DNA of 64,000 nucleotides from Sedimentisphaerales bacterium (GTDB lineage Bacteria > Planctomycetota > Phycisphaerae > Sedimentisphaerales > Anaerobacaceae). The translations under genes and the position numbers were made by a program. Positions 8,364 to 31,818 of the stretch are shown piece after piece. How positions within the stretch are numbered: the stretch's first letter is position 1; every line of letters begins with the position of its first letter. The notes under the pieces are model-generated. The model was given only the letters and a program-made list of their open reading frames with translations, was not told the DNA's origin and ran no database searches. Where the stretch lies: positions 24 to 64,023 of the forward strand of contig JAXDBU010000187.1 of the NCBI GenBank assembly GCA_034678485.1, in the 5' to 3' direction.

Positions 8364-8380
8364 GGGATGCTCCTGTGCTT

Positions 8381-9907
8381 CTACTGTTGTTCCTGCAGGA
8401 CTTGATTCAGTACGCTGCGTCTGTCTTTGAGCGAAGCCAACGGATCGTAGCCTTTCGGCGCACGGCCCTTCGTTGCCAGCCACTCAAACGCGCGCGTCCG
8501 GGCGGCCGGCGAAATGTCCTCCAGGTAGATGAAGTTCTCCAGGAGGAGCCGCTGCTCCAGATCTGCGCCGCTGGTGGCGTCCGCGACCATCTCTTTCAGG
8601 ACCGCGGGATGGCGGCCCACCTCGCCGGCGTGACGCATCGCGATGGCCTCCAACTCCGGCCTCATCTGCTCGGCAGACAACAAATCCGCGAGAAACAGGT
8701 ACGCTGCCTTCTGCAGTCGCCACCCCAGCGTGCCGATCTCCCAAGCGGGATCCGACTCGCATTCCTTGGTGATGACGTAGGCCAGACGGTCAATGACCAC
8801 TTCTGTGGCCGAAAGGGTGACATCCTCGATGAGAGGCGCTCCGGCCTCTCGCGCAAGATATAGCAGCGCCTGTCGTCTATGCGTCAACGATTGGAGCAGC
8901 CGCAGCGCATCTTCCATACCTCGTCTGCCGGCGTCGAACCGTGGCCCCTTTTGTTCGCTGTCCTTCTCGACCGCTGCTTGCAGAGAACCCTGACACTCTC
9001 TTAGCAGCGTCTCGTAGGCGACCGCTTCGGCCGTCCCCTTCGGGGGAACCGGCATCACTTCGATCAGAGCCGCAAACGCCGCAATTCCGTCCAGATTGAA
9101 CGGCGATGGCAGGATGACTCCCCATTGCCCCTGTTCCGGCAGGTTCTGCGGCTTCAACGAAATGGTTTCTGTTGCGAGTATACCAGAGGCCGCAGACGTC
9201 GACTGCGTTTGCTCTTTCCCGGAGCTCGCGGTGCTGTCTGCGTCCAGGAGAGCGTCTTCCTCGAGTTCTCCCGTGGCTACGAGCGATATCTCCAGAGAAG
9301 CGACCGTCGTGGGACGCTCTGCAGTTCCTTGCTCTGGGGCCGGTCCTTGCCGCACTTGGATTTCGAGCTTGGGAATCGCGCCGGAATCCGCCTGCGGCCG
9401 GTCCCAAACACGGAAGCTCGCGCCGACGCCGGCGGGCAAGACACCCTGCAGCGTAGTTCGGGACACGAACGTACTTTCACCACGCTTGGGAGCTTGTTCC
9501 AGAATCTCGGTCTCGTTCTGAACCACTCCGATCCTGGCTCTTCTCAGCAGCCCGGCGACGGCCGTAACCGGCGAACTCGTAGGCAGGACGGTGATCATCT
9601 GGGCTTGTGCTTCCACGGGCTCCAAGGGGGTTCGGGGCCATGGATTGATGGCCAGGAAGGTCACGGTGATTCCCGGAGAGCCATCGAGAGGGAGCGAATT
9701 GCCGTCCGCTGCTTGGTTGTCGGGCGATGGAGAGCACCTGAAATAGCTCACATCATATTGCAGCCTGGACACAGCAGGAGGGCTCGGAGGCGCTTTGGAG
9801 CCTATGCCACAGCCTGCAGACAAGACCATGACCGCACAAATCAAACAAGGGATGGTCCGATACCGGTTGGCCGGACTGTCGTAGCGGCGATGCAACTGTC
9901 GTTCCAT
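8381..9907 (-). CDS. Hypothetical lipoprotein-like protein, co-transcribed upstream of the AsmA-like gene
   Basis: Starts at MERQLHRRYDSPANRYRTIPCLICAVMVLSAGCGIGS (signal peptide with a lipobox-like SAGC). No family recognised. The tracked ORF extends to 9934. Confidence 0.6.
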   Translation of the reverse strand: MERQLHRRYDSPANRYRTIPCLICAVMVLSAGCGIGSKAPPSPPAVSRLQYDVSYFRCSPSPDNQAADGNSLPLDGSPGITVTFLAINPWPRTPLEPVEAQAQMITVLPTSSPVTAVAGLLRRARIGVVQNETEILEQAPKRGESTFVSRTTLQGVLPAGVGASFRVWDRPQADSGAIPKLEIQVRQGPAPEQGTAERPTTVASLEISLVATGELEEDALLDADSTASSGKEQTQSTSAASGILATETISLKPQNLPEQGQWGVILPSPFNLDGIAAFAALIEVMPVPPKGTAEAVAYETLLRECQGSLQAAVEKDSEQKGPRFDAGRRGMEDALRLLQSLTHRRQALLYLAREAGAPLIEDVTLSATEVVIDRLAYVITKECESDPAWEIGTLGWRLQKAAYLFLADLLSAEQMRPELEAIAMRHAGEVGRHPAVLKEMVADATSGADLEQRLLLENFIYLEDISPAARTRAFEWLATKGRAPKGYDPLASLKDRRSVLNQVLQEQQ

Positions 9908-11501: not shown

Positions 11502-12008
11502 CTATCGCGAAGGATGGCACGATGACGGGGCAGGCGGGCTTTGCATGTGCTCAACTGCATTTCGATTTGTTGACAGCCAATCGGCAACAGGCAACTGCTG
11601 GATCGCCTGTCGCAACACCGGATCGACGTTGGTATACACGTCGTTTGTCAACCGCGGACTGGAGTGTTCGAGCAACCGTTGCGTCACTGCGATCGACACA
11701 CCTCTTTGTGCCAGGAGAGAGGCGAACGTCTTACGCAGGTCGTGGAATCTCAGATCAGGCAGCTTCATAGTCTTCCGCAACTTCTCCCATTTCTTGGGAC
11801 TGAATCTATCGGTGAAGAGCTTCTCCCAACCATCTGAGAGGATGGCGACGTAGTTCGACAATTCCATCATGACCTCCGGAGGGACTGGGCGTTCCGGCAT
11901 CGCTTTGCCGGCCGTGCGGTTACGCGTCGAGATAGTGTTGCCTCCCTCATACCATCCGCACCACCATCCCTTGATGTGCTTACGTTTGTACACCCATGGC
12001 CTTCTCAT
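11502..12008 (-). pseudogene. Tyrosine recombinase (phage integrase family), internally deleted
   Basis: An N-terminal arm (MRRPWVYKRKHIKGWWCGWYEGG) is joined directly to the C-terminal catalytic part (RFHDLRKTFASLLAQRGVSIAVTQRLLEHSSPRLTNDVYTNV). The SAM-like domain and the box-I Arg region are missing, leaving only about 169 aa. Confidence 0.65.
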
Positions 12009-12329
12009 AGCCTCCATCATATCGGCAGTTTTAGCCCCGCAGTCCGGCGACGCGACGCAATCGCGTTGTGGATGGAGACAAAGCGGAGACATAACGGGTA
12101 TCGAGAAGGCTGCGGCCGCCGCAAACGTAGGCACCAAAAGGCTTTATGAGAATCGGCCCTCAGGGGAAAAGGGACAACCCGTACGATTGCCTCCTATCTC
12201 CAGTATTCAATGCCATTGATGCCGCGGCCCGGCCGTGGTTACCTCGCGGGCGAACAATGGTTTCCTCTTGAGTTACTCAGCTACTTGGGACGATTTCGGA
12301 AACGCCTCATCCTCTGTTGGAGAACATCC

Positions 12330-13258: not shown

Positions 13259-13299
13259 TGAAAATCCGTGTGTCGCCGGTTCAACTCCGGCCCTGCCCA
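13259..13299 (+). other. 3' fragment of tRNA-Phe(GAA): att-site-like remnant, not a functional tRNA
   Basis: TGAAAATCC-GTGTGTC-GCCGG-TTCAACT-CCGGC-CCTGCCCA covers the anticodon-loop 3' side, variable loop, T-arm and 3' acceptor strand. No matching 5' half (GGGCAGG.., D-arm) exists upstream. Confidence 0.6.
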
Positions 13300-13590
13300 T
13301 TCGGCAAGTCGTTATCAGGCAAGCATTTACGAATGCCTGCCTTTTTTGATGCCTGTGAAGATGGGCAATTACAGCACTTTTGCAGCAGTTTTTGGCATAG
13401 GCCTCGCTCCGTCGCCCGCCTCGCACGCTGCACCAGATCGTCCCGGACACGCAGGTAGAACCGGTGCGTTGTCCGAAAACCCGCATGCCCGGCGAGCTTC
13501 ATCACATCGAATTCGCTCATGCCTTCCTCGAATCAGTTGCAGATCGCAGTCCGCCTCAGGTCGTGGAACTCACCGGCACTGGCGGAAGGC
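13281..13590 (-). pseudogene. Tyrosine recombinase C-terminal fragment with an in-frame TGA
   Basis: Hand translation: PSASAGEFHDLRRTAICN*FEEGMSEFDVMKLAGHAGFRTTHRFYLRVRDDL. HxLR, GH and the catalytic Tyr are present. The TGA lies at 13535-13533. The reading frame opens just below 13590 after a stop codon, and nothing of the integrase lies beyond it. Confidence 0.6.
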
Positions 13591-13922
13591 CTTTACGATA
13601 AACGGGTTATGTATATGCCGGGGCCGACTGAGAGCTGCATGTCTCCGGTTCAGGATCGGCAGAGAACCAGTCCATAGCAGATTCGCCGGGACAACGGTTG
13701 ACCTGCACCCCGGCGCGCCGATATACTCTCTGGGAAAACGAAAGGGGAGCGAGTGTTTCTGGAACGGTCAACGTAGGCTGGTCTTGCTGAACACGTGCCC
13801 GATTCTGTGATGCGGGCCCACTGACAGAGTACTTGCAGGCTTTCTGCTGCTGATATGTGGTATAGGCCTCCCGTAGAGACGTCGGGGTCGAGAACCCGTA
13901 AGCTGTTAACCGCAAGGCCAAA

Positions 13923-16900
13923 ATGGAAGTGCTTGTCCATGAGCATCTCTATCGTGCCGTGATCTGCTTCGTCATAGGGGCGGCGACGGGAGTGAATCAT
14001 GCCCAGAATCGCGTCCTCCAGTTGGATGGTGGGGGGGACTATGTCCAGCTCCCCAGTAGTGCCGTCCAGGACCTTGATGAGGCCACGGTTGAATCCTGGG
14101 TGAAATGGGAGGAGTTCGGGTACTACTCCCAAGCATGGGGCTTTGGCTCCGGCCAGACCTGGAATGTCATGTGCCTGACCACCCGGGAGTACTCGAACTC
14201 GCTACAGTTCTTCATCTACGAGAGACAGAGACTGCACAGAATCCTGGTACCTGATGTGTTGCGCCAGAACCAGTGGTGCCACATAGCCGCTGTGTCCGGT
14301 CCTGCAGGGATGCATCTGTATCTGAATGGCGTATTGATTGGACAGCACGAATACCAGGGAAGTTTCTCTGCCATACCGCTTGGGGAGGGTGCCTATTTAG
14401 GCAGGAGCCAGTGGCCCTCCAATACGGACTTTCACGGCCAACTGGATGAGATTCGCACGTGGGACGTGGCACGTACGGCGGAACAGATCAACGCTTCGAT
14501 GTTCACGCATTTGAAGCGTGGGGAAGCCCATCTGGTTGGCCTGTGGACTTTCGACTCCGATGATGCAGCAGACGCAAGCGGGCATGGGCATGACGGAGTT
14601 CTTAGGGGGGATGCTCGGTGCGTAGAGGCTGATCTGCCAACGCCGGGTGAGTTGGCCCGGCCCTCTGTCGTTTCCGGGGAGGTTACGGACGAGGCTGGGA
14701 CTCGTCTGGCAGACGCCAGCATAGCCTTGGCACACGATATGCGTGTTGTCGCGGCAACCAGAACAGACGGCGCCGGACGCTACAAGATCGTGTTCTATCC
14801 TGATCTGCCTGTCTATGATCTGACGGCCACATGGGGTGACAAAGCCGAATGGCGCCAGGGGCTGGAAGTCGTCCCAGGGCAGTGCCATGAGATGAACCTG
14901 ACGCCACGCACCGCCGTGAGTCTCACAGGGACTGTTGTGGCCTATGATGGCTCACCACACCCGGCTGTTGTCATCCAAGCTGTGCCGGCCACCGAGTCCG
15001 GGCCGCCAGCAAATCCGACGGCCGTTCAGAGTGATGAGCGGGGTCATTTCCAGTTCATCAATCTGAGGCCGGGACCATACCGAGTGCGGTGCTATGTTGG
15101 AGATCGGTATGTGTACTACGCTACGACGAACACCCTCTCGACTGCCTCGCCCGGCGATGTCCTCCAGGTGGAGCAGGGTAGAGCGGTTCAGGACGTCGAT
15201 ATGCGCATTGCGCCGTTCAAGAAGGGCTTGTGGCGAACTTACACTTACCTCGACGGTCTGGCGGATGACTACGTGGGTGCCATTGAGAGCGATACGACGG
15301 GGCGGATCTGGTTTGGAACACCGACTGGGCTGTCTGTGTTCGACGGCAGGGTGTTTACCACCTTCACCCAGAAGGACGGACTGGTCTCGAACGGGGTCAA
15401 TACGATCTGTCCGGACTCCGAAGGCAGGTTGTGGATCGGTACTGAGAATGGACTGTCCCTGTATGATGGCAGGACGTTTGCGAATTTTACAGCCCGGAAT
15501 GGCCTGATGGGCAAGATAGTCCGCAGCCTGTTCCAGGACTCGCAGGGCAGGATTTGGATTGGCACAGATGAGGGTTTGTCACGATACGATGGTGGCAAGC
15601 TCATAATCTGCGCGGACCGCGAGAATCTGCCCGGGAATAGCAGCGTGAATGCAATTGTCGAGGCGGGAGACGGGAACCTATGGTTGGGAACCGGAACCGG
15701 CCTGGTGCATTACGACGGACGACATTTCCGCACCCTCACAGCGGATGATGGATTGGTGTGCGACACCGTTCGTGCGCTGTACCGAGATCATCGGGGCGTT
15801 CTGTGGATCGGGACCCTTCAGGGACTCTCCAGTTATGATGGGCGGACATTTGTGAATTACACGGTCGCCGACGGCCTGGCGCACGACAAGGTCAACTCGA
15901 TAGAAGGAGAGGCAGATGACAGACTCTGGCTCGCCACGGATCACGGCGTCTCTCTCTACGACGGCCAGGGCTTCGTCACGCTCTCTCCATCGGATGGCTT
16001 GGCCTATTGGCCGGTGGGAGCCGTGCATCGAGATCCCCACGGCGCCGTCTGGTTCGGCACGATTCTCGGGGGCGTTTCCCGCTACGACGACAGCAGCCTT
16101 GTCAGCTTCACCATTCGGGATGGCCTTGCCGGCAATGCGGTCCATGCGATCTCAGAGGAACCGAAAGGTACTCTCTGGCTGGGGACCAGCGGTGGCCCCA
16201 CGCGGTATGAAGGACGGAGATTCACCAGTTTTGCCGGCCGAGACGGCCTGCCGGATGAGCCGATCACGAGCCTGTACCGCACGCCGGATGGGGTCCTCTG
16301 GTTTGGCACCAGGGACAGCGGATTGCATCGATATGAGGGCGGCTCCACCAGAGCCATCAACAGCGCGTATGGGTTCGTGGACGCGCATATCACCACCATC
16401 TGCCGGGGGCACGACGGATGGCTATGGGTGGGTCACAGTGCCTGGGGCATCTCCCGCGTGGATCCTGCGGCGCTGACCGTCGAGTCGCTCCCGCTTCCCA
16501 GGGGATTGACGAATATCCACACGCGATCCATCTATCCCGCTGAGGATGGGACCACCTGGATCGGTACGTTGGGGTCGGGACTTCTGCGCTATGACGGGCG
16601 GCAGTGTACGCATTTCACCACTGAGGATGGGCTGCTGAACATGCAGGTTGAGATGATCCGCCCGGGGTTGGATGGGATGCTATGGCTGGCGACGAAGGAC
16701 GGTATCTCCCGGTATGACGGAAGGCGGTTCGTCAATCTGACGATGCAGGACGGATTGCCGGATGACTACATCACGACGATGTTCCAGGACCGCCAGGGCA
16801 AGTTCTGGCTGGGTACTCAATCGGCCGGCGTGATCGCGTATGACGGAACGACCTTCTCCACCCTGGATACGCGCGACGGCTTGGCGAGCAATACGGTCTA

Positions 16901-18980
16901 CGCGATCTGTCAAGACCAGGAAGGCGTACTATGGTTCGGAACCGAACGAGGGCTTTCGCGCTATCACACTCGGATTGCCTTGCCCCATGTCGGGATTGTC
17001 ACTTTACAGGCAGATCGTCGATTCGCCGACCTGACCGAGATCCCCTCGCTGACCTCGGGTCGGCGCCTGAGCGTTTCCTACCGGGCCCAGGATTTCACTA
17101 CCTTGCCGGAGAAGCAACAGTATCGGGTGCAGATCCGCAGGGCAGGGGAAAGCCTAACGCATACGAGTGAAGCCGCAGTTCCGGCGAGCAGCTCCCTCGT
17201 GAGCTCCCCCACCAGAGCCACGGTTTTCGATTGGACGCCGAAGGAACGGGGTACCTTTGTGTTCGAAGTGCAGGCCGTGGATCGGGATCTCAACTACTCT
17301 GAGCCTGCCCGGCTCACTCTGCACGTGGTTCCGCCGGCGTACCTGAATGCCAGGATCGTCATCCCCTCTGCCGCGGGCCTGCTTGGTTTGCTCGGCATCC
17401 TGACCTTCCTGGGCACGGGCGTGATTGCCCATCGCCGCAAGGCCAGGCAACTCCCAGTCCAGTTGCTTGAGAATGAACGCCAAAGAAATGTGCTCCTGCA
17501 AGGGGCACGGGACGCCGCGGAAACGGCCAATCAGGCCAAGAGCCTCTTCCTGGCGAACATGAGCCACGATATCCGGACCCCTTTGAATGCGATTCTGGGC
17601 TATGCGCAGATCCTGCTGCGCAAGCCGGACCTGCCGGCCGACACACGCAGGGCAGTATCCACCATCGCCGAAAGCGGCAATCACCTGCTGTCGCTGATTA
17701 ATGACATCCTGGACATCTCCCGGATAGAGGCCGGACGACTGGAGCTGACTCCAACAGATTTCAACCTGGCGTATTTCATCGAAGGTCTCTCCTCTGTATT
17801 TCGACCTCGCTGTGACCAGAAGGGGCTCAGTTTGCGTGTAGAGTGGGATGGACTGCTGAAGGAATCTGGAAGGCATGATTTGCTTTCACACCCCGTTCGC
17901 CGGATCATCCATGCCGACGAGGGCAAACTCCGTAAGATTCTCAGCAATCTGCTCTCCAACGCCGTAAAGTTCACGGACTCGGGCGAAGTCGTACTGAGAA
18001 TTGGCGAATTCCCCCAGGAGGCTATCCCGCCTTCGGGTGGAAACGCTCGTCTTTCGAGTCTGAGATTCGAGGTTCTGGATGCCGGCATCGGCATTCCTTT
18101 GGCAGACCAGGCGACTATTTTTGACACTTTCGCCCAAAGTGAGCAGGGACGCACCCGGGGCGGCACCGGACTCGGGCTGGCGATTGCCAAGCAGTGTGTG
18201 GAACTCATGGGCGGGTCCATAGGGATGGAATCCGCCCCCGGAAAGGGCTCGCATTTCTTCCTCACCGTGCCAGTTCAGCCGGAGACAGCGGCAACGGGAT
18301 CAGATGACTTGGCGTTCCGGCCTGGCGGTCGGCCTCGGGTCATGCGGCTGGCGGACGGCCAACGGGTCCGCGCGCTGGTCGCAGACGACATCCAGGAGAA
18401 TCGAGACGTGCTGGCACAACTGCTGAGGGATGTGGGAGCCACGGTGAGTACCGCTGCCAGCGGTAGGGAAGTCCTGGAAGCGGTGCGGGCGTCGTCCCTC
18501 GACATTGTCTTCATGGACATCCGCATGCCGGACACCGATGGTTTGACGGCAGCCCGGGAGATCCTCCGTATGGTGGCGCCGGGTCGTCCAAGGCTCGTAG
18601 CGGTCTCCGCTTCGGCCCTGCTCGAACAGCGGCGGGAATACCTGCAGGCAGGTTTCGAAGGATTTCTTCCCAAACCCATTGATGCTGAGCAACTTTACGC
18701 CCTGCTGGCACGGCTCTTGCAAGTGCAGTTTGATTATGGCGGACCCGAGGCGGGCATGGCACGTCTTGGGACGTTCTCTTTGCCCGGCGAACTGCTCTGC
18801 CGCCTCCGTGCAGCTACGGAGGCATACAACGCGACGGAGCTGACGCGCTGCCTGGAAAAAGTCGAGCGACTCGGTCCGGACGGTCGCGAGTTGGCCGAGC
18901 ACCTGCGCAACTGGATCGAGCGCAGCGAGCTCGACCAGGTCAGGTGCATCTTGGCGCAGGTTGAGAGTTCTCAGTCATGA
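13923..18980 (+). CDS. Hybrid sensor histidine kinase/response regulator with a LamG + CarboxypepD_reg-like + double beta-propeller (Reg_prop) + Y_Y_Y periplasmic sensor
   Basis: About 14 repeats of ~48 aa (..DG(L)....V.ai..D..G.lWiGT..GLsrYDG..F..) span roughly 15220-16975, followed by an Ig-like Y_Y_Y region and a TM helix (about 17340-17430). HisKA is [18 protein letters not shown] (His codon 17565-17567). HATPase_c and a REC domain ([13 protein letters not shown]) follow. Confidence 0.9.
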
Positions 18981-20581
18981 ATGACAATAGAACCAGGATC
19001 CTTGTTGCAGATGATATTGCTGCGAATCGCACCCTGCTCCGGCAGACCCTGGAGCCCGCCGGATACGATGTTCTCCTGGTGCCCGGGGGCGAAGAGGCGC
19101 TGAGTGTCGCCCAGCGGGCCGGGCCTGATCTGATTCTGCTCGATGTCATGATGCCGGGGCTGAATGGTTTCGACACATGCCGTCAATTGAAACAGCAGGC
19201 ATCGACACAGAGTATCCCGGTGATCTTTATCACGGCCAAGGACGACAGCGAGAGCGTAGTGCAGGGTTTCCGTGTCGGCGGCGTGGACTACATCACCCGC
19301 CCCTTCAACGAAGCGGAAGTCCTGGCCCGTGTCGATAATCACCTTCGGATCCACCAGCTCACCGAGCAATTGCAGCAGAGAAATCGCCAACTACAAGATG
19401 AAATTGCCCGACGCGAGCAGGCGGAAGGACAGTTGGCCCGGGCCGATGGTCAACTTTCGATGATCTCCGAACAGGAGGCACGGCGCTGGGGAATCGAGGG
19501 CTTTGTCAGCCGCAGCCCCACGGTCTGCGCTATCTTGAACGATGTGCGCCGGCTCCAACAAGCCGAGAGGACCGCCGTGCTGATCACGGGCGAAAGCGGC
19601 ACAGGCAAAGAGCTGATTGCTCGCGCCATCCACTTTGGCGGTTCAAGGTCCGGGAAACCGTTTATCGTCATGAACTGCTCTGCGATTCCTCGGGAGTTGG
19701 CCGAGTCGGTGCTCTTCGGCCACATGCGCGGCGCCTATACGGGAGCGCACGAGACCCGCAAAGGTTACTTCGCCCTGGCAAACGGCGGGACGCTTTTCTT
19801 GGACGAAATCGGCGACATGCCGCCAGAATTGCAGCCGAAGCTGTTGCGTGTTCTGGAAGATGGTCGTTTTACCCCCTTAGGTGGTACGGAGGAGCAACAG
19901 ACAGACGTCCGTATCCTGTCGGCCACGAATCAGGACCTGCGAAACAGAATCGCTCAAAAAGAGTTTCGCCAGGACCTCTACTTCCGTCTCGCCCAGTTCA
20001 CCGTGGTCGTGCCGCCACTGCGGGAGCATCCGGAAGACATCGCACTGCTGGTCGAACACTTCCTCGAAATGTTCGCGATCGAGATGGGAAAGAAGCGTCC
20101 CCGCCTGAGCGGTGAAGCCCTTGCTGAACTGCAGGGCTATGGCTTTCCCGGCAACGTCCGCGAGTTGAAGAACATCATCGAGCATGCCCTCATCAAGAGC
20201 GGCGGAGCCCCTATCCGGCCCGAGCACCTGCATCTGCTTGGCGAGGCCGACACCTCGGCCCGATGCGCCGCGACCAACGTAGGCGCCTGCCCCGCGGAGG
20301 ATTTTGAACGCCGCAAGGAACTCGTCATCAAGCGGGCACAAAAGCCATCAGCCCAGAACGAAGAACCGGGTCAGGAGCAGTCTGTACCCTTGATGACCGA
20401 CGAGGAAAAGATCTTCGCCTATGTCAAGCAGCACGGCAGCATCAACAACTCCGAATGCCGCCAGGTGCTCTCGTCCGACTACGATCACGCTTCCTATCTA
20501 CTCAAGAAGCTCCACAGCTACGGGCTGCTCGTGCGTGAAGGCGACGGACGTTGGGCCCGCTATAGCCTGCCTTTGCCCTGA
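18977..20581 (+). CDS. Sigma-54-dependent response regulator (REC + AAA+), with a non-Fis C-terminal winged-helix-like domain
   Basis: The start overlaps the kinase stop (ATGA). REC is [13 protein letters not shown], Walker A is [23 protein letters not shown] carries a GAYTGA variant of GAFTGA at 19730-19747. The C-terminus is ...[56 protein letters not shown]. Confidence 0.9.
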
Positions 20582-20957
20582 GTGACAGATGCGCTGAGCA
20601 GCGCGGGATAGCACCTGCTCAAGGCCCTCATGGTTCGCAGGGTTGTCCAAGACACTCCGGTCTTGGCATTGGCCCATATGGATAGTACCTGCCTGTGCGC
20701 CTGGGAGCAAGCTCCGGCGTTATCGCATCACAAGCACTCCACGTGAGGAGACTATCGCCCCTTCAGGCGGCGGTCTCTAAGCAGGCTATGAGTGCTGTAT
20801 GGGGAGTCTATGAGCAGCCTACAAGCACGCTCTGGACGGGGGTAGCCCAGGGGGGGGACACTCTCCAGAGATCAGGCTGGGAGCGGCTGACCTGTCCAGG
20901 CGCGTGGAATCCGGGATAGGGGGCATTGCGCATATGTCGGAGGGAGATTCGCGTCTC

Positions 20958-20973
20958 TGGTATGAGTGTTGCT
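20958..20973 (+). promoter_or_regulatory. Candidate sigma-54 (-24/-12) promoter upstream of the first sulfatase
   Basis: cTGGTATGagtgTTGCTa: the GG and GC are at canonical spacing (TGG-N9-TTGC). It lies 93 nt upstream of ATG 21066 and directly downstream of the sigma-54-type activator gene. Confidence 0.4.
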
Positions 20974-21065
20974 AAGGATTCTGCTGGGTATGGCGCTCTG
21001 GCCAGAATTGTCACAGCATGGTGTGCCCAGGATCACAGTGCGGTTCCTGCGAAAGGAGAGAAGTC

Positions 21066-22679
21066 ATGAAACAAATGTCAAGAGTCTTCATCACGTTCGT
21101 CTGCGGATTTGCTCTGGCGGCACTTGCCTCGCCGGCAACAGTGGCGGGGCAGGGCAAGAAGCCAAACATACTGGTCATCATGGGCGACGACGTCGGGCAG
21201 GCCAACATCAGTGCCTTTACCAAGGGGCTGATGGGCTATCGCACGCCGAACATTGACCGTATCGCGCAAGAAGGACTGCTCTTCACTGACTACTATGCCG
21301 AGCAGAGCTGTACCGCCGGGCGGTCCACGTTCATCACGGGCCAGAGCGTCTTTCGCACGGGTTTGAGCAAGGTGGGGATACCCGCTGCCCCCCAGGGACT
21401 GCGGAATAACGACCCGACGATCGCCGAGATGCTCAAGCCTCTGGGCTACGCGACCGGCCAGTTCGGCAAGAACCACCTCGGTGACCGCAACGAGTTCTTG
21501 CCGACTGTGCACGGGTTTGACGAGTTCTTCGGCAACCTCTACCACCTCAACGCTGAGGAGGAGCCAGAGGACTACACATATCCACAGGATCCGAAGTTCC
21601 GCATGATGTTCGGTCCTCGCGGTGTCCTCCGGTGCAAGGCCAGCGACCGGGACGACCCGACGGTGGACCCGCGCTTCGGCAAGATCGGCAAGCAGACCAT
21701 TGAGGACACGGGGCCACTGACCAAGAAGCGAATGGAGACGATCGACGATGAGACCTCGGCCGCGGCGATTGATTTCATCCAGCGGCAGACCACGGCCCGC
21801 AAGCCTTTCTTCTGCTGGTACAATGCAACACGTATGCACGTCTGGACTCACGTCAGGCCTGAGCACCGGAGTCCCCGGGGAGCGACGGCGCTCACCGAGT
21901 ACGCTGACGGGATGATCGAGCATGACGCCACGGTTGGCACTCTGCTCAAGACGCTCGACGACCTGAGCATCGCGGACAACACCATCGTCATTTACACCAC
22001 CGACAACGGCCCGCATGCCAATACCTGGCCGGACGCCGCGACGACGCCGTTCCGCAGCGAGAAGAACACCAACTGGGAAGGCGGTTTCCGCGTGCCCTGT
22101 TTCATTCGCTGGCCGGGCCACATTACGGCTGGTCAGGTCACGAACGAGATCGTGAGCGGTCTGGACTGGCTGCCGACGCTGGCGGCCGCCGCCGGCGATC
22201 CCGACGTAAAGCAAAAGCTGCTCAAGGGTTACGCCGTGGGCGACACAACGTATAAGGTCCACCTCGACGGCTACAACCTGCTACCCTTCCTCACTGGTCG
22301 AGAACCGAAGAGCCCGCGCCGTGAGTTCTTCTATTTCAGTGATGATTGCGAGTTTCTGAACCTGCGCTACGAGAACTGGAAGTTCGTTTTCGCAGAGCAG
22401 CGCTGCACCGGTACGTTTGCCATCTGGGCCGAGCCCTTCACGCCGCTTCGTATCCCCAAGTTCTTTGACCTGCGAGCGGATCCTTATGAACGCGCCGACG
22501 TCACGTCGAATACCTACTACGATTTCTGTGTAAGACACATTTATCTCATGGCACCCGCCATAATCTACGTCGAGAAGTTCATCGAAACCTTCAAGGAGTA
22601 CCCGCCAAGCCAACTGCCTCAGTCTATCAGGATTGAACAGGCGCTGGACAAGATGAAGCAGGCTGGCGGTGCCCTGTAG
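21066..22679 (+). CDS. Arylsulfatase (type-I sulfatase family), secreted
   Basis: AAGGAGAG RBS, then MKQMSRVFITFVCGFALAALASPATVAGQ signal peptide. KPNILVIMGDDVG, the active-site stretch SCTAGRSTFITGQ (Cys codon 21309-21311) and GKNHLGD are present. Confidence 0.9.
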   Translation: MKQMSRVFITFVCGFALAALASPATVAGQGKKPNILVIMGDDVGQANISAFTKGLMGYRTPNIDRIAQEGLLFTDYYAEQSCTAGRSTFITGQSVFRTGLSKVGIPAAPQGLRNNDPTIAEMLKPLGYATGQFGKNHLGDRNEFLPTVHGFDEFFGNLYHLNAEEEPEDYTYPQDPKFRMMFGPRGVLRCKASDRDDPTVDPRFGKIGKQTIEDTGPLTKKRMETIDDETSAAAIDFIQRQTTARKPFFCWYNATRMHVWTHVRPEHRSPRGATALTEYADGMIEHDATVGTLLKTLDDLSIADNTIVIYTTDNGPHANTWPDAATTPFRSEKNTNWEGGFRVPCFIRWPGHITAGQVTNEIVSGLDWLPTLAAAAGDPDVKQKLLKGYAVGDTTYKVHLDGYNLLPFLTGREPKSPRREFFYFSDDCEFLNLRYENWKFVFAEQRCTGTFAIWAEPFTPLRIPKFFDLRADPYERADVTSNTYYDFCVRHIYLMAPAIIYVEKFIETFKEYPPSQLPQSIRIEQALDKMKQAGGAL

Positions 22680-22852
22680 CCGCCGGGCGTCCCGCAGTCG
22701 CAGTGCGACTTTCCCTCGCTCGACTACGTGCACCGCTCATAGGAACATTGACTCAGATGGTCACCGAACCGGCTGGAACGGAGAGGCGAAGCGAAAAGCT
22801 GCTCCTGCCTTTCTCCGTTCCCCCCGGTTCGAATGAGAAGGAAAAGAAAGCT

Positions 22853-23842
22853 ATGAAACGGCTGAATTACGTCGTACTCGCTGTGCTCGCCGGGCTGGCC
22901 GTGGCAACGACCGCGTATGCTGCCGATCCGTTGCCTTCCTGGAATGACAGCTCCGCCAAGAAGTCCATCCTTCAGTTCGTTACTCGGGTGACGCAGCAGG
23001 GCTCGCCGGAGTTTGTATCTCCGGCCGAACGGATCGCGGTCTTTGACAACGACGGCACGCTCTGGGCGGAGCAGCCGATGTACTTTCAGTTCCTGTTCAT
23101 GCTCGACCGTGTCAAACTGCTGGCGCCCCAGCACCCGGAGTGGAAGACAGAAGAACCGTTCGCCTCTTTGCTCAAGGGTGACGTGAAAGCGACCCTTGCG
23201 GGCGGCGAACGAGCCTTGGGCCAATTGCTGATGGCCACACACGCAGGCATGACCACGGAAGAGTTTGAGAAGATCGTCAGTGATTGGATCGCGACCGCGA
23301 AGCACCCCAAGACAGGGCGGTTGTTCACCGAGATGGTGTATCAGCCGATGCTCGAACTGCTTGCCTACCTGCGGACAAATGGATTCAAGACGTTCATCGT
23401 CTCCGGCGGCGGCATCGAGTTCATGCGTCCGTGGTCGCAGCGAGTCTATGGCGTGCCGCCAGAGCAGGTCATCGGCAGCAGCCTCAAGACGAAATTCGAC
23501 ATGCGCGACGGCAAACCGGTGCTTGTCCGTCTGCCCGAAATTCACTTCATAGACGACGGCCCTGGCAAGCCCGTCGGTATCCAGATGCACATTGGCCGTC
23601 GTCCACTGGCGGCCTTCGGTAATTCCGACGGCGACCTGCAGATGCTCCAGTGGACCGCCGCGGGCAGTGGCCCACGCTTGTGCCTGTACGTCCGCCACAC
23701 TGACGCCGAGCGGGAATGGGCGTATGACCGCCAGTCCTCGATTGGCCGCCTGGACAAAGGCCTCGACGAAGCATTGGCGAAGGGTTGGACCATCGTCGAT
23801 ATGAAGAAGGACTGGAAGACCGTCTATCCTGTGGAGAGATAG
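22853..23842 (+). CDS. Secreted HAD-superfamily hydrolase (phosphatase-like)
   Basis: Signal peptide MKRLNYVVLAVLAGLAVATTAYA. HAD motif I is IAVFDNDGTLW, and later ...FGNSDGDLQML. The start is set at ATG 22853 after GGAAAAGAAAG. Confidence 0.7.
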   Translation: MKRLNYVVLAVLAGLAVATTAYAADPLPSWNDSSAKKSILQFVTRVTQQGSPEFVSPAERIAVFDNDGTLWAEQPMYFQFLFMLDRVKLLAPQHPEWKTEEPFASLLKGDVKATLAGGERALGQLLMATHAGMTTEEFEKIVSDWIATAKHPKTGRLFTEMVYQPMLELLAYLRTNGFKTFIVSGGGIEFMRPWSQRVYGVPPEQVIGSSLKTKFDMRDGKPVLVRLPEIHFIDDGPGKPVGIQMHIGRRPLAAFGNSDGDLQMLQWTAAGSGPRLCLYVRHTDAEREWAYDRQSSIGRLDKGLDEALAKGWTIVDMKKDWKTVYPVER

Positions 23843-23874
23843 CAGATAACAGGACGAAAGGAGAAAGCAACGTT

Positions 23875-24690
23875 ATGAAGGCTAAAGAGGCATGGGTCGT
23901 GTGTTTGGCGGGTATGTTCTGCCTGTGTAGTTTCTCGGGCGCGAAGGCCCAAGAACAGCCGGCTCACAAGATCACCGCTCAGGAAGTAGCGGAGATGCTG
24001 GCCGACCCATCGGCGACGATCACCTATCTGAATGCAGCCTATCGAACATACCAGGACGTGGGCCCAAACGACGATACGAACCAGGAGCTTCGATTGAACG
24101 GCGCAGGTTTTCTCAATCTGCCGAACGATACGTCGGTGCTGTACCGGGCGTTTCTGCCCTTGTATTCAACCGAGTTCCCGTTCGATGACCAGGGCGTGGG
24201 CGACGCTCTGCTCTCTGCGTATTGGGTCCCCAAGAAGGGCAACTTGATCCTCGGCTATGGCGGCGCGCTGATCACGCCGACGGCCTCCGAAGACTACTTC
24301 GGCTCCGGCAAGTGGTCAGCGGGACCAACGCTCGTCGTGGCCCAGAAGGTGCCGGGGAAGTTCACGGTCGGCGGATTGCTCACGCACGTCTGGTCTTTTG
24401 CAGGCGAAGAGGACCGCGACGAGGTTAGCCTGACCACCATCCAGCCCGTGGCGACGTTCTTCCTGAACAAGAAGGGCACATCGGTCAGTCTCATGTCGGA
24501 AACCACGTACAACTGGCAAGCCGATGAGGACCCGTGGCAAGTGCCTGTGACTGTCGGACTTGGTCAGATCCTGCCTCCGATCGGCAAACAGTTCATTGGG
24601 GTAGCCGTAGCGGGCACCTACTACGCCGAAAAAGCCGACTATGCGCCGGAATGGGACATCCGGCTGACCGCGTCGGTTGTCTTCCCCTGA
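23875..24690 (+). CDS. Putative outer-membrane beta-barrel channel (uncharacterised transporter-like OMP family)
   Basis: AAAGGAG RBS and signal peptide MKAKEAWVVCLAGMFCLCSFSGAKAQ. The sequence shows an alternating beta pattern, and the C-terminus is ...YYAEKADYAPEWDIRLTASVVFP. Confidence 0.55.
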   Translation: MKAKEAWVVCLAGMFCLCSFSGAKAQEQPAHKITAQEVAEMLADPSATITYLNAAYRTYQDVGPNDDTNQELRLNGAGFLNLPNDTSVLYRAFLPLYSTEFPFDDQGVGDALLSAYWVPKKGNLILGYGGALITPTASEDYFGSGKWSAGPTLVVAQKVPGKFTVGGLLTHVWSFAGEEDRDEVSLTTIQPVATFFLNKKGTSVSLMSETTYNWQADEDPWQVPVTVGLGQILPPIGKQFIGVAVAGTYYAEKADYAPEWDIRLTASVVFP

Positions 24691-24837
24691 GTCGAGAGCG
24701 TTCTTGCTCCGACCGGACAGGGCGAAGATCAAATTCTGGATGGCGAGTCTTCGCTTTCCAGAAAGAAACGGCCTGGCGTATTGCCCGCGTGGGCAGTGGA
24801 TCTGAAAGGTAAGGCATCTTAGAGACAAGGAGAACGA

Positions 24838-25566
24838 ATGAAGATGGGAATGAAGGTAATGTTCATGGCTGGCGTTCTACTGGCGACCGCATCGGGGCTC
24901 ATTGCCCAGGATGAGCACTGGGACTTCGAAGTCACGCCCTATTTCTGGGCGGCTGGAATCGACGGCGAGGCGACGGTCCAGGGCAATCACGCGGATATTG
25001 ATGCGGACTTCGAAGATATCATCGACGCGGTGGATGCCGGAGTAGGCCTGATGACCACGGCCCGCCGGGATTCCTTCGTGGTCTGGGGTCAGTTCGACTA
25101 TGTCGGCATGGACACGGATGAACTGGACGACGCACCTGCGGGTGGCTCGATCCAGACGGACAGCTTCCTGGCGGCGCTGGCTGCCGGCCTCCGATTCGAC
25201 TTGCCGCTCAAGGGCTCTACCATCGACGTTATGGCTGGCTTACGGTATGGCTGTGTGAAGACCGAGGTGGAGATCACCGGCGTGGGCAGTGGGGAGGACA
25301 CCGAGGATCTCATCGATGGCATCTTCGTGTTGCGCCCCAATGTTCGTCTGACGGAGAGGTGGCATTTCAATCCGACGTTCCTCGTCGGCGCAGGCGACTC
25401 GGAATTGACCTGGGAAGTGCAGCCGACCATTGTGTACCGGATCAACGAGGATCTGGCGCTCCGCGCGGGATATCGCCGGGTGTTCTACGACATCGAAGGC
25501 AACGGGGGCAACGGTCTCGAGCTCGCTTTCCAGGGCCTGCTCGTAGGTGTGGACCTGCTGTTCTAA
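24838..25566 (+). CDS. Small outer-membrane beta-barrel protein
   Basis: Has a signal peptide. EVTPYFWAAGIDGE...WGQFDYVGMD...GLLVGVDLLF ends in Phe. It is a paralogue of 37925..38656. Confidence 0.65.
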   Translation: MKMGMKVMFMAGVLLATASGLIAQDEHWDFEVTPYFWAAGIDGEATVQGNHADIDADFEDIIDAVDAGVGLMTTARRDSFVVWGQFDYVGMDTDELDDAPAGGSIQTDSFLAALAAGLRFDLPLKGSTIDVMAGLRYGCVKTEVEITGVGSGEDTEDLIDGIFVLRPNVRLTERWHFNPTFLVGAGDSELTWEVQPTIVYRINEDLALRAGYRRVFYDIEGNGGNGLELAFQGLLVGVDLLF

Positions 25567-25685
25567 CCACATCCGTCTCACCTGCGGCGAGACGAGAAAA
25601 GCCATGTGGTGGATGGGAGAGATTCCGTCAGGATCGTTCCTTGAAGCAGGCAAACAGTGAGAAAACAAATGCCAAGGAGACAGAC

Positions 25686-28118
25686 ATGAGGTGGCAAACG
25701 ACGAGAATCCTCAGTGCCGTCATCTGCACGGTCATTGGCTCGGTGCTGGCGGCGGGAATTCCATTCATCAGCCGCGCATCCGCGCAGGAGGTGCTGCCGG
25801 CGCCGGCGGCGCCGTTCAAAGGGCAGATCGCACTGAGTTCCAAAGACTCGAAGTCTGATTTCCCCAAGCCGGTTCAGACGCCCAAGGGTGCGCCCAACAT
25901 CGTGCTGATTCTGCTGGACGATGTTGGCTTCGGCGCGTCGAGCACGTTCGGCGGGCCGTGTCAGACGCCCACGTTGGACCGGCTGGCCCGGAATGGTCTG
26001 CGCTACACGCAGTTCCACACCACAGCCCTCTGCTCGCCCACGCGGGCGGCGCTGCTGACCGGCCGCAACCACCACTCAGTTCACACCGGCGTCATCATGG
26101 AGTTGGGGACAGGCTACCCCGGCTACGACACCCTGATGGGTAGGGACACCGCGACCGTTGCGGAGATCCTCAAGCAGAAGGGCTGGAACACCTCCTGGTT
26201 CGGGAAAAACCACAACGTGCCCGACTGGCAGACGAGCCAGGCCGGGCCGTTCGACCTCTGGCCCACGGGCCTGGGCTTCGAGCATTTCTATGGCTTCCTC
26301 GGCGGCGACACGAGCCAGTGGCGCCCGGCGGTATTTGAAGGCACCCGACCTATCGAGCCGTACATCGGCAACCCGGACTACAACTTCGATTACGACATCG
26401 CCGACCAGGCGATCCGGTGGGTGCGCAATCAGAAAGCGGTTGCCCCGGATAAGCCGTTCTTCCTCTACTATGCGCCGGGAGCCACCCATGCCCCGCATCA
26501 TCCGAAGAAGGAATGGATCGCAAAGTACAAGGGCAAGTTCGACCAGGGCTGGGACCAGGTCCGCGAGGAGACCCTGGCTCGGCAAAAAAAGCTGGACATC
26601 GTCCCGGCTGATACCCAGTTGACGAAGCGCCACGCGGAGTTGCCCGCCTGGGATTCCCTCGGGGCCGAGATGAAGGAGCTCAACGCCTACATGATGGAGG
26701 TGTACGCGGCCTACCTCTCCCAGACGGACTACAACGTCGGCCGGGTCCTCGATGCCATCGAGCAGTTGGGCCAGCTCGACAACACGCTGGTCATCTACAT
26801 CGTCGGCGACAACGGCGCGAGCGTCGAAGGGAACATCCAGGGTTCGCTCAACGAGGTTGCCTCCCTCAACCGAATCCCGGAAGACTTCAGGCAGATGCTC
26901 AAACGCAAAGACGACCTGGGCACGTGGAAGACCATCAACCACTACCCGGTCCCCTGGGCACACGCGATGAGCACGCCGTTCCAATATGCCAAGGGATATG
27001 CTTCGCACTACGGCGGCACTCGCAATGGCATGGTCATCTCCTGGCCTGCCGGCATCAAGGATCGCGGCGGCATCCGTGCCCAGTGGCACCACACAATTGA
27101 CATTGTGCCGACCCTTCTGGAATTATGCGGTTTGCAGCAGCCGTCCGTCGTCAACGGCGTGGCCCAGAAGCCCATCGAGGGCGTCAGCATGGCCTACACC
27201 TTCGACAACGCCAGAGCGTCATCGACACGACGGACGCAGTATTTCGAGATGTTCGGCATGCGGGGCATCTATCACGACGGCTGGGTCGCCTGTACAACGC
27301 CCTTGATGCCGTTGGGGGACTCGGGCGACCCCACGAGCGACGTCATCACTGGCTACAAGTGGGAGCTTTATCATGTCGAAGAGGACTTCAGCGAGGCCGT
27401 GAACCTGGCCCCACAGAACCCTGGCAAGCTCCAGGAACTGCAATTGCTGTTCTACGCGGAGGCCGCCAGGTACAATGTCCTGCCTCTGGAACACAACCGG
27501 GTTCCACGACTCGACGTGTCCATCCGTCCCAGCTTGACGCGAGGGCGGACCGAGTTCACCTACAACGGATGCGTCTCTCGCATTCCGGAGGGCGCCGCGC
27601 CCGACTTGAAGAACAAGTCGTTCCGCATCACCGCCGACGTGGTCCTTCCGAAGGGCGACGAACAGGGGGTCGTCGTGACACACGGCGGAATCGCCGCGGG
27701 TTATGCGTTGATGTTCGAGGCCGGCAAGCCGGTGTACCACTACAACTTCGGGAACGTCGCTCACTTCCGCGTCGCGGCCCCGGACGCCCTGACGCCCGGC
27801 AAGCACACCGTCGTCTTCGACTTCCGGTACGACGGCGGCGGCATCGGCAAGGGCGGCGCAGGGACGCTCCGCGTGGACGGCAAGCAGGTGGCCCAGGGGC
27901 GCATCGACAACACCATGCCCCTTCGCATCGCATTGGATGAGACGTTCGACGTGGGCAAAGACACCGGAACGCCCGTGCACGAGGGCTATGACGTGCCGTT
28001 CGAGTTCACCGGACAGATCGAGAAGGTGGTCGTCAGCCTCGGGGAGGCCAAACTCTCTGCTTCCGATCAGCAGAAACTCCAAGGCGCCGATCGCGAGGTA
28101 GCGCTCGCGATGCAATAG
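25686..28118 (+). CDS. Arylsulfatase (long form, about 810 aa), secreted
   Basis: Start at MRWQTTRILSAVICTVIGSVLAAG.. PNIVLILLDDVGFG and the canonical active site LCSPTRAALLTGRN (26031-26045) are present, followed by FGKNHN. Confidence 0.9.
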   Translation: MRWQTTRILSAVICTVIGSVLAAGIPFISRASAQEVLPAPAAPFKGQIALSSKDSKSDFPKPVQTPKGAPNIVLILLDDVGFGASSTFGGPCQTPTLDRLARNGLRYTQFHTTALCSPTRAALLTGRNHHSVHTGVIMELGTGYPGYDTLMGRDTATVAEILKQKGWNTSWFGKNHNVPDWQTSQAGPFDLWPTGLGFEHFYGFLGGDTSQWRPAVFEGTRPIEPYIGNPDYNFDYDIADQAIRWVRNQKAVAPDKPFFLYYAPGATHAPHHPKKEWIAKYKGKFDQGWDQVREETLARQKKLDIVPADTQLTKRHAELPAWDSLGAEMKELNAYMMEVYAAYLSQTDYNVGRVLDAIEQLGQLDNTLVIYIVGDNGASVEGNIQGSLNEVASLNRIPEDFRQMLKRKDDLGTWKTINHYPVPWAHAMSTPFQYAKGYASHYGGTRNGMVISWPAGIKDRGGIRAQWHHTIDIVPTLLELCGLQQPSVVNGVAQKPIEGVSMAYTFDNARASSTRRTQYFEMFGMRGIYHDGWVACTTPLMPLGDSGDPTSDVITGYKWELYHVEEDFSEAVNLAPQNPGKLQELQLLFYAEAARYNVLPLEHNRVPRLDVSIRPSLTRGRTEFTYNGCVSRIPEGAAPDLKNKSFRITADVVLPKGDEQGVVVTHGGIAAGYALMFEAGKPVYHYNFGNVAHFRVAAPDALTPGKHTVVFDFRYDGGGIGKGGAGTLRVDGKQVAQGRIDNTMPLRIALDETFDVGKDTGTPVHEGYDVPFEFTGQIEKVVVSLGEAKLSASDQQKLQGADREVALAMQ

Positions 28119-28189
28119 AAAACAGGGAAAGCAGGCCCTTCAGGACCCGCCTTCCCTCGGGATGTGCCGAGCAGAACACAAGGGAACAT

Positions 28190-30968: not shown

Positions 30969-30975
30969 GACTGCG

Positions 30976-31761
30976 ATGACTGAGACGCAAGGAAAATCGA
31001 TCATCCGAGTCGAGGACGTGACCGTCGCCTATGGCGATTTCGTCGTGATGCGCGACATCAACTTCGAGGTCGAGGTGGGTGAGATATTTGTCATCCTTGG
31101 TGGTTCCGGGTGCGGCAAGAGCACCCTTCTCAAGAGTATGATCGGACTGAATGCCCCAACCAAGGGTCGTGTGCTGATCGACGGTAAGGACATCGTCACC
31201 GCCGAAGGAAAGGATGAGCTGGCAATTCTTCGCAAGATCGGCGTCATGTACCAGCAGGGGGCGCTCTTCGGTTCCATGAATCTGCTGGAGAATATTTGCC
31301 TCCCCCTGGAGGAGTTCACAGACTTGCCCCGCAGTGCGAGGGAGACGATTGCCCGGACGAAGCTCAAAGTGGTAAACCTGGACGGCGCCGAGTACAAAAT
31401 GCCCTCCGAACTCAGTGGCGGGATGCGAAAGAGAGCCGCCATTGCCCGGGCGATGGCCCTCGACCCGAAGATTCTGTTTCTCGATGAGCCCTCGGCGGGG
31501 CTCGATCCCATTACCTCATCACAGCTTGACGAGTTGATCCTGAAGCTCTCCCGGACCCTTCGGATGACCTTTGTCGTTGTGACCCATGAACTGCCCAGTA
31601 TCTTCAAGATAGCCGACCGGGTCATCATGCTGGACAAGAGAGTCAAGACGATTGTCGCCACCGGCAGACCGAGCGACCTTCGCGACCGGAGCGACAACCC
31701 CTGGGTCCGGCAGTTCTTCAACCGGGAAGCCGAGGCGGTCGCGGAGTCTCGGCAGACATAG
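30976..31761 (+). CDS. mlaF: ABC transporter ATP-binding protein (MlaF-like)
   Basis: Walker A GGSGCGKST, signature LSGGMRKRAAIARA, Walker B ILFLDEP. Confidence 0.9.
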   Translation: MTETQGKSIIRVEDVTVAYGDFVVMRDINFEVEVGEIFVILGGSGCGKSTLLKSMIGLNAPTKGRVLIDGKDIVTAEGKDELAILRKIGVMYQQGALFGSMNLLENICLPLEEFTDLPRSARETIARTKLKVVNLDGAEYKMPSELSGGMRKRAAIARAMALDPKILFLDEPSAGLDPITSSQLDELILKLSRTLRMTFVVVTHELPSIFKIADRVIMLDKRVKTIVATGRPSDLRDRSDNPWVRQFFNREAEAVAESRQT

Positions 31762-31818
31762 CTGACAGAAGGTACTTGTGGACGGCACAATTATTGACAT
31801 CCTATCGGACAACAAATC

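Follow-up and report, generated by a model that had tools for sequence, protein, structure and literature searches.

The closest described counterparts of the system reported here are the hybrid two-component systems (HTCSs) of Bacteroides, represented by BT4663 (Protein Data Bank (PDB) entries 4A2L/4A2M), BT3049, and BT4673. BT4663 is a sensor of heparin/heparan sulfate, and the regulator domain of an HTCS is of the AraC type. A second kind of counterpart is the LuxQ-LuxU-LuxO pathway of Vibrio, in which a hybrid kinase controls a sigma-54 activator. One published account (PMC11253607) places the sensor histidine kinase and the response regulator transcription factor of an HTCS within a single polypeptide. 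The present analysis concerns a locus of a Sedimentisphaerales bacterium (Planctomycetota) in which a propeller sensor kinase related to those of the HTCSs is encoded directly beside a separate sigma-54 enhancer-binding protein (EBP), termed the activator below. The locus lies in a 64,000-nucleotide stretch of contig JAXDBU010000187.1 (GenBank assembly GCA_034678485.1), which is referred to as the window and to whose positions all coordinates refer; it represents contig C187. The genome comprises 6.3 Mb in 196 contigs and has a completeness of 97.7%.

The evidence makes it likely that this locus is a self-contained regulatory cassette, probably horizontally acquired, which comprises a propeller hybrid kinase, a coupled winged-helix sigma-54 activator, a repeat enhancer, a -24/-12 promoter, and a cargo operon. 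In the circuit proposed, an extracellular cue would act on the propeller module and thereby switch the kinase, and phosphate would be passed to Asp56 of the activator. The activator would then assemble on the repeat array at 20775-20829 and open, at the expense of ATP, the sigma-54 promoter at 20958-20973, which would turn on the genes for a sulfatase, a HAD-family hydrolase, two outer-membrane proteins (OMPs), and a second sulfatase (21066-28118). A further promoter at 18706, internal to the kinase gene, would probably provide the activator gene with positive feedback.

Results

Conservation of the Kinase-Activator Pair

Searches with the whole activator as query returned 80 generic EBPs at ~40% identity, and this query was replaced by the winged-helix tail of the activator, with which the cassette loci were collected. 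The sole closer match of the whole-activator search, L007, has a different and shorter kinase. The collected loci revealed that kinase and activator genes overlap or abut in at least 10 loci of several phyla. This arrangement recurs wherever the sequence of an orthologous locus extends far enough: in L082 (72%), L083 (58%), L084/L088 (69%), L085, L086, L087, L090, L091, L092, and L093. Planctomycetota and Poribacteria-like and Entotheonella lineages, among others, are represented. In the window, the TGA stop codon of the kinase gene (18978-18980) overlaps the ATG of the activator gene (18977-18979), the two sharing an ATGA.

The genes that follow the activator differ from locus to locus. An RTX/serralysin-like metalloprotease is encoded in L082, a PKD protein in L083, and a LamG protein in L093, and giant proteins of about 3,000 amino acids with a common N-terminal region are encoded in L086, L087, and L090-L092. 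A Pfam scan of the giant proteins, which excluded L091-L092, matched LamG/pentaxin/FlgD_ig in L087 and L090 and Por_Secre_tail in L090, and left the product of L086 unannotated.

Domain Architecture and Predicted Fold of the Kinase

Pfam searches and inspection of the 1,685-residue kinase sequence revealed an N-terminal hydrophobic signal/anchor, a Laminin_G_3 domain (residues 35-190, E 2.5e-24), two CarboxypepD_reg stretches (about 248-417, E 3e-15), two seven-bladed Reg_prop propellers (about 436-1015, E 1.7e-62), a Y_Y_Y domain, a single transmembrane helix after it (about 1147-1172), HisKA (1205-1271), HATPase_c (1332-1452), a fused receiver (REC; Response_reg, 1485-1595), and an 85-residue helical tail, in that order. 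The Y_Y_Y match at residues 1100-1135 scored 26.0 bits, just below the cut-off of 26.6, and the Ig-like Y_Y_Y domain as a whole extends over residues of about 1020-1140. The H-box residues are the usual ones, and the fused receiver retains all catalytic residues (DD, D, S, and K). The blade motif W-x-G-T was found in 12 copies by regular expression, and two further variants were recognized on visual inspection. Combined with the pattern of four strands per blade in the AlphaFold model, this count gives 14 blades, or two seven-bladed propellers.

The periplasmic region (residues 28-1150) was modeled from an alignment of 44 sequences with a pLDDT of 89.3 and a pTM of 0.80. A sequence search of the PDB matched the sensor to 4a2l (BT4663) with E 3e-52. 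A fold search with the model returned BT4663 (4a2m/4a2l) at E 4e-42 with a template modeling (TM) score, taken on the target, of 0.62; BT3049 (3v9f) gave a TM score of 0.69, and BT4673 and PorZ followed. The sensor is thus predicted to have the HTCS fold. An earlier reading of the window, made from the sequence alone (the sequence-only reading), had described this order of LamG, CarboxypepD_reg, Reg_prop, Y_Y_Y, transmembrane, and HisKA/HATPase/REC units, about 14 blades, enough for two propellers, a periplasmic unit of the HTCS sensor type, and the ATGA overlap of the open reading frames at 13923-18980 and 18977-20581; all of this is borne out, and the signal/anchor is an addition to it.

Searches for relatives of the kinase gave 6,586 matches, and domain layouts were read for the best 120 of these. 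Nearly all of the 120 share the layout of LamG, CarboxypepD_reg, Reg_prop, and kinase domains, and they come from Planctomycetota, Poribacteria, Latescibacteria, Verrucomicrobia, and Gemmatimonadota. The LamG and CarboxypepD_reg units, which the sequence-only reading had set apart as foreign to the classical HTCS, are indeed absent from the HTCSs of Bacteroides; they are not peculiar to this kinase, and a large family outside Bacteroidetes has them as a rule. In some of the best 120 relatives, the output domain is PP2C (PF07228; P0034, P0057, and others) or a fused Sigma54_activat (PF00158). The propeller sensor is fused to Sigma54_activat and HTH_8 in P0040, P0079, P0080, P0083, P0101, P0111, P0112, and P0114 (P0080 without a listed HTH_8), which would make these proteins membrane-anchored one-component sigma-54 activators.

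Apart from the kinase, the genome encodes a single Reg_prop protein, a 1,223-residue membrane protein of the BlaR1/M56 peptidase type (L129 5737-9408, on contig C161 of G000), in which propeller repeats are accompanied by NfeD-like and DUF3485 regions. It was considered as a parallel system and rejected on account of its BlaR1/M56 type.

The Winged-helix Domain of the Activator

The 534-residue activator matched Response_reg (residues 8-119, E 7.5e-28), Sigma54_activat (residues 178-343, E 1.5e-63), and AAA_lid_14 in Pfam. Its Walker motifs read GESGTGKE and LFLDEIG, and receiver residues DD12-13, D56, and T86 are invariant among orthologs. The sigma-54 contact motif is GAYTGA in the window activator and GAFTGA in orthologs. 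Because the active EBP HrpS has GAYTGA by nature (PMC3105312) and the orthologs carry GAFTGA, the substitution is no argument against activity.

By contrast with the AAA+ region, the C terminus departs from the NtrC type. HTH_8, the Fis-type helix-turn-helix (HTH), remained unmatched even at E 10, and only a weak match to HTH_27 was obtained. The last 60 residues are nearly invariant among orthologs and were modeled as helix-strand-helix-helix-strand-strand with a pLDDT of about 90. Fold matches to this tail were winged-helix DNA binders only (AspA, MarR, ArsR/PagR/CadC, and BlaI), and its profile gave only marginal ArsR/MarR matches among PDB sequences. With the C-terminal winged helix found in AlbA_2/HATPase_c_4 ('RecG-like') proteins, the tail shares 60-68% identity, and it is present in activators of about 45 database clusters. 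The NtrC-type regulator of the sequence-only reading therefore holds with respect to REC, Sigma54_activat, and AAA_lid_14, and a winged helix takes the place of the Fis-type HTH. The sigma factor gene rpoN, which that reading had named as a gene to look for, is present in the genome (391.7 bits against a cut-off of 277), as are nine true EBPs.

The Repeat Array and the Cargo Promoter

Five direct repeats in exact 11-bp phase, beginning at 20775, 20786, 20797, 20808, and 20819, lie between the activator gene and the first sulfatase gene and constitute a candidate enhancer. A position weight matrix (PWM) was built from the ten repeat units of L082 and L083 only and was used to scan both strands of the 6.3-Mb genome. 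It ranked the window array first, at 45.8 bits against 28.2 bits for the next cluster, and the regular-expression cluster of the repeat was likewise unique to the window array in the genome. The -24/-12 promoter downstream is one for which 0.04 sites of equal quality are expected in the 489-bp spacer.

Nine other loci (L082, L083, L086, L087, L090-L093, and L110) have the same succession of repeat array, -24/-12 promoter, and cargo start after the activator gene. These contain 4-6 direct repeats, usually five, with starts about 11 nt apart (exactly 11 in L083). The repeats begin a few bases to about 60 nt past the activator stop codon in most of the nine, and the promoter lies about 50-170 nt 3' of the array. 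A second repeat array was seen neither in the window nor in the other loci.

Comparison of the recognition helices of the winged-helix domains with the repeats revealed that the two vary together. The helix (L/M)HHASYLLKK pairs with the repeat core CTATTAGC, LR(H/R)ASYLL(T/N)K with CTATTAAC / CTATTCCC, RQRANYLLRK with CTATAATGA, and RHRAFYLLER with AATTCCGCAC; one further variant pairs with CTAT(G/A)AG(C/T)A. This co-variation is consistent with direct recognition of the repeats, in which case the L086-type helix would be expected to prefer CTATTAGCA.

A Promoter within the Kinase Gene

The genome contains 17 perfect matches to the sigma-54 consensus, and one of them lies at 18706 within the kinase coding sequence, in which 0.007 would be expected. 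The site spans the codons for L-A-R-L-L-Q at the junction of the kinase receiver and tail. Ten loci have TGGCAC-N5-TTGC at this position, 255-297 nt 5' of the activator start, at kinase identities down to about 50%. That the site is kept merely through conservation of the protein sequence L-A-R-L-L was considered and rejected, because synonymous positions are fixed too: in a codon alignment of 210 codons from the 10 loci, the Ala at the promoter is encoded by GCA and the Leu by TTG in 10/10 each, whereas most other conserved Ala and Leu columns have mixed codons, and GCA is in the minority in all the remaining conserved Ala columns. This pattern of codon usage indicates that selection acts on the DNA itself at 18706. 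The internal promoter probably serves positive autoregulation of the activator gene. No repeat array was found near it, and it would therefore have to be served by the array ~2 kb downstream or by unbound activator.

Origin of the Cassette

An ortholog of the activator was sought in 23 other genomes of the same genus and in 17 more distant relatives, and was found in 1 of the 23 and in none of the 17. Just upstream of the cassette lie the 3' half of a tRNA-Phe-like sequence and fragments of integrase genes (Table 1); ARAGORN found no complete tRNA in the window. Elsewhere, an integrase gene precedes the cassette in L083 and an HNH gene in L082. Horizontal acquisition of the cassette is likely because of the patchy distribution of the activator and the presence of the tRNA-Phe half and integrase fragments upstream.

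A more far-reaching proposal, offered tentatively and with chances that fall a little short of even, is that kinase, winged-helix activator, phased enhancer, and promoters form a portable module that has spread between phyla and captures different secreted cargo. The activator would on this proposal have an undescribed mode of DNA recognition, with one winged helix per ring subunit placed on 5-6 head-to-tail repeats along one face of the DNA, and the coding-embedded promoter would provide feedback.

The Predicted Cargo Operon and Its Surroundings

The sequence-only reading had placed the cassette directly 5' of a sulfatase block, and two sulfatase genes do follow it. The extent of the operon, 21066-28118, is predicted from the sequence, and a hairpin directly after the second sulfatase gene is likely its end. 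Both sulfatases contain PF00884 (E 2.5e-50 and 1.7e-61), a signal peptide, and a Cys-type active site, and both give only weak, generic aryl/choline-sulfatase-like scores. The genome contains 15 genes with an FGE-sulfatase domain, and with their domain and active-site motifs (pattern C/S-x-P/A-x-R) both sulfatases fit the formylglycine-dependent (type I) class. No carbohydrate-active enzyme (CAZyme; glycoside hydrolase or lyase), SusC/D, or sugar transporter gene is present among the genes of the block.

A similar co-directional block of sulfatase, sulfatase, HAD, and OMP genes is present in G011, a genome of the same genus (L128, contig C717, 1-10100). No activator ortholog was found in G011, and the 12.7-kb contig C717 contains no match to kinase or activator. 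The sulfatase block is for this reason regarded as an independent module that was brought under the control of the cassette in the window.

A third sulfatase gene of the window (36214-37821) encodes a 58%-identical paralogue of sulfatase 1, and neither a repeat array nor an activator gene was seen beside it. On the same strand after the sulfatase block lies an Mla-like lipid-transport operon (29832-33515; STAS-MlaE, MlaF, MlaD, and an ABC_trans_aux lipoprotein). A 1,903-residue DUF748/AsmA/YhdP-like protein, likely an intermembrane bridge, is encoded on the minus strand at 2772-8483.

Table 1. Features of the cassette and its flanks in the window
Feature	Position	Strand	Details
Integrase fragments	11502-12137; about 13440-13560	-	Phage_integrase Pfam match
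3' half of tRNA-Phe-like sequence (att-type scar)	13259..13299	+	Just 5' of cassette
Sigma-70-like promoter candidate for kinase	13698..13727	+	TTGACC-18-TATACT, 10/12 consensus match; no excess of such sites over shuffled sequence
Hybrid sensor histidine kinase, 1,685 aa	13923..18980	+	Open reading frame, Pfam, PDB sequence match, model
Internal sigma-54 -24/-12 promoter (candidate)	18706..18721	+	TGGCACGGCTCTTGCA; within kinase coding sequence, 271 nt 5' of activator ATG
C-terminal helical tail of kinase, ~85 aa	18720..18977	+	Not a histidine phosphotransfer (Hpt) domain; conserved in orthologs
Sigma-54 enhancer-binding response regulator, 534 aa	18977..20581	+	REC, coiled-coil linker, AAA+, C-terminal winged helix
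T-R-P-F of activator, residues 105-109	19289-19303		Conserved receiver Lys position
C-terminal winged helix of activator, aa about 474-534	20396-20578	+	Model, fold search
Candidate enhancer (upstream activation site, UAS), five direct repeats	20775..20829	+	Exact 11-bp phase; CTCTAAGCAGG CTATGAGTGCT GTATGGGGAGT CTATGAGCAGC CTACAAGCACG
Sigma-54 -24/-12 promoter (candidate)	20958..20973	+	TGGTATGAGTGTTGCT (TGGTAT-N5-TTGCT); 93 nt 5' of sulfatase ATG (21066)
Secreted sulfatase 1, 537 aa	21066..22679	+	C-T-A-G-R active-site motif
Secreted HAD-family hydrolase	22853..23842	+	
Outer-membrane channel-like protein	23875..24690	+	Weak Phenol_MetA_deg match
Outer-membrane beta-barrel protein	24838..25566	+	
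Secreted sulfatase 2, 810 aa	25686..28118	+	Canonical C-S-P-T-R
Hairpin, 15-bp stem	28124..28157	.	Directly 3' of sulfatase 2; T-run on minus strand, direction uncertain

Discussion

Strength of the Regulatory Assignment

That the sensor feeds a sigma-54 EBP, as the sequence-only reading had proposed, is consistent with the conserved, coupled kinase-activator pair and with the predicted enhancer array and sigma-54 promoter in front of the sulfatase gene. Of the kinase-regulator-sulfatase synteny that was to be examined, the kinase-regulator part is conserved and the sulfatase part is not, the cargo differing by locus.

Several observations weigh against this assignment. DNA binding, activation, and the phosphotransfer route are, like every regulatory link drawn here, in silico predictions. 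Direct transfer between kinase and activator is an assumption, because the kinase has a receiver of its own and no Hpt domain was found. In the activator receiver, the Lys of the K-P motif is replaced by Arg (T-R-P-F) in the window, L082, L083, and L084, and is Lys in L086 and L087. The window array itself is imperfect: one of its five units, at 20797, is degenerate; Tandem Repeats Finder did not call it over 20500-21100; and it begins 195 nt past the activator stop codon, compared with directly after the stop in most loci. In L084, an ortholog from the same genus, no clear array is visible over the 292 nt that precede the contig end, and array and promoter are absent at the corresponding position in L103 and L106. 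Finally, the co-variation of helix and repeat comes from few, non-independent lineages.

Phosphotransfer and Ligand

The most serious competitor to the scheme concerns the path of the phosphate. If the system were a multistep phosphorelay like ShkA-ShpA-TacA or LuxQ-LuxU-LuxO, phosphate would pass from His to the kinase receiver, from there to a separate Hpt protein, and only then to the activator. The kinase receiver with its full set of catalytic residues would suit such a relay, small Hpt proteins often diverge too far to be matched by Pfam, and two reports (PMC7010744 and PMC6969517) provide precedents for hybrid kinases that feed sigma-54 activators through Hpt. Three Hpt domains are indeed encoded in the genome, but all are within large proteins on other contigs, and the cassettes of 10 loci revealed none. 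The kinase tail contains neither an Hpt domain (Pfam matches at E 10 were noise) nor a conserved His, and its profile matched only designed helical bundles in the PDB. A cassette moving between phyla would, moreover, need an Hpt of its own, and the strict translational coupling of kinase and activator fits a directly cognate pair. A relay is considered rather unlikely on this evidence, and direct transfer from His to Asp56 is clearly favored over it; the fused receiver would then act as a modulator or sink.

A sulfated glycan had been named in the sequence-only reading as a plausible ligand. The sensor would then bind the glycan or its breakdown product, as BT4663 does heparin fragments, and the locus would be a dedicated switch for utilization of sulfated polysaccharides. 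The fold shared with the heparin sensor BT4663 points in this direction, as do the sulfatase operon as the predicted direct target, the signal peptides and Cys-type active sites of both sulfatases, and the FGE-domain genes of the genome. Comparison of the 710-residue propeller region with that of the relatives points elsewhere, however. The sensor of L082 is 73.5% identical to that of the window yet fronts the RTX/serralysin-type protease; that of L083 (58.5%) fronts the PKD protein, and those of L086, L087, and L090 (about 50%) front giant LamG/pentaxin proteins. The sulfatases are generic in their scores, the similar block in G011 is one for which no activator ortholog was found, and the double propeller also occurs in PorZ, which is not a two-component sensor. 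Because the cargo differs between loci and the block lacks CAZymes and SusC/D, a sulfated glycan is no better a guess than many other ligands. This account is accordingly held to be improbable, and the ligand is probably not specific to sulfated glycans. The cargo consists mostly of secreted or surface proteins (window, L082, L083, L086, L087, L090, and L093), which suggests a general extracellular cue. Nearly identical sensors fronting unrelated cargo also serve as a warning against the inference of ligands from neighboring genes.

It is highly improbable that the activator leaves the repeats and promoters unused, that the pair regulates distant genes, and that the sulfatases adjoin it through an accident of island insertion: the cassette does adjoin mobile-element debris, adjacency alone is weak evidence in a genome with about 21 genes of the sulfatase family (three of which are in the window), and the array is degenerate enough to have been missed by Tandem Repeats Finder, but array and promoter accompany the activator gene in nine other loci of different phyla, the window array is the best PWM cluster genome-wide, and no second array is in evidence.

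Relation to Known Systems

The self-contained cassette favored here would offer a complete, testable circuit, made up of a sensor, an activator, two promoters, and a predicted enhancer whose repeat code can be read. Outside Bacteroidetes, Reg_prop sensors are abundant but essentially unstudied. If it is true that a winged-helix activator reads 5-6 phased direct repeats, this would add to the modes known for the positioning of AAA+ sigma-54 activators on DNA. A compact, self-contained switch with the tightness of sigma-54 control could also serve as an engineering part.

With the HTCSs of Bacteroides, the kinase shares a double seven-bladed Reg_prop propeller and Y_Y_Y domain, a transmembrane helix, and HisKA, HATPase, and REC domains in one polypeptide, to which it adds the N-terminal LamG and two CarboxypepD_reg units. 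The HTCSs continue into a fused AraC-type domain, whereas a separate sigma-54 activator is encoded here. No AraC/HTH_18 match was obtained in the kinase with Pfam, and none is listed for the best 120 of its 6,586 relatives. The cassette is not an HTCS, because the fused AraC domain that defines one is absent. The genomic setting differs as well: HTCSs are linked to a SusC/D polysaccharide utilization locus, and the neighbors here are genes for sulfatases, a HAD hydrolase, OMPs, and an Mla-like transporter.

PhoB-type regulators activate sigma-70 polymerase by contact. The predicted arrangement of head-to-tail winged helices on direct repeats with 11-bp periodicity resembles that of PhoB/OmpR-type regulators on the Pho box, but the winged helix is of another family and is joined here to an AAA+ ring motor for sigma-54. 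EBPs of the NtrC/DctD/NtrC1 type share with the activator REC, a coiled-coil linker, and the AAA+ sigma-54 domain, and would share an upstream site combined with a -24/-12 promoter; the GAYTGA contact motif is like that of HrpS. They differ in the DNA-binding domain, which is usually a three- or four-helix HTH bundle, pairs of such domains occupying UAS sites (PMC7175178, a 2020 review), and whose place is taken here by a winged helix akin to the one in AlbA_2/HATPase_c_4 proteins. The paired dimer sites of NtrC-type EBPs likewise contrast with the 5-6 head-to-tail 11-bp repeats of the predicted enhancer.

The ShkA-ShpA-TacA pathway of Caulobacter (PMC7010744 and PMC6969517) also places a hybrid kinase upstream of a REC-AAA+ activator. 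Both this pathway and LuxQ-LuxU-LuxO differ from the cassette in having a dedicated Hpt protein and sensors that are cytoplasmic or coupled to a periplasmic binding protein rather than propellers.

Reg_prop/Y_Y_Y signaling proteins other than HTCSs are represented by the ReeS kinase of Clostridium perfringens, the HtsH proteins of Lysobacter, and GGDEF proteins of Xanthomonas. Together with the Sigma54_activat- and PP2C-fused relatives, they identify the propeller sensor as a general input module with many outputs. To our knowledge, none of these non-HTCS propeller proteins has been described with a winged-helix activator, a phased repeat enhancer, or an internal promoter. Outputs of propeller sensors other than AraC and hybrid kinases that feed sigma-54 activators are thus already known. 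What looks undescribed, when set against PMC7175178 and the literature searched, is the winged-helix subfamily of activators, the phased direct-repeat enhancer, the sigma-54 promoter embedded in coding sequence, and the portability of the whole with changing cargo.

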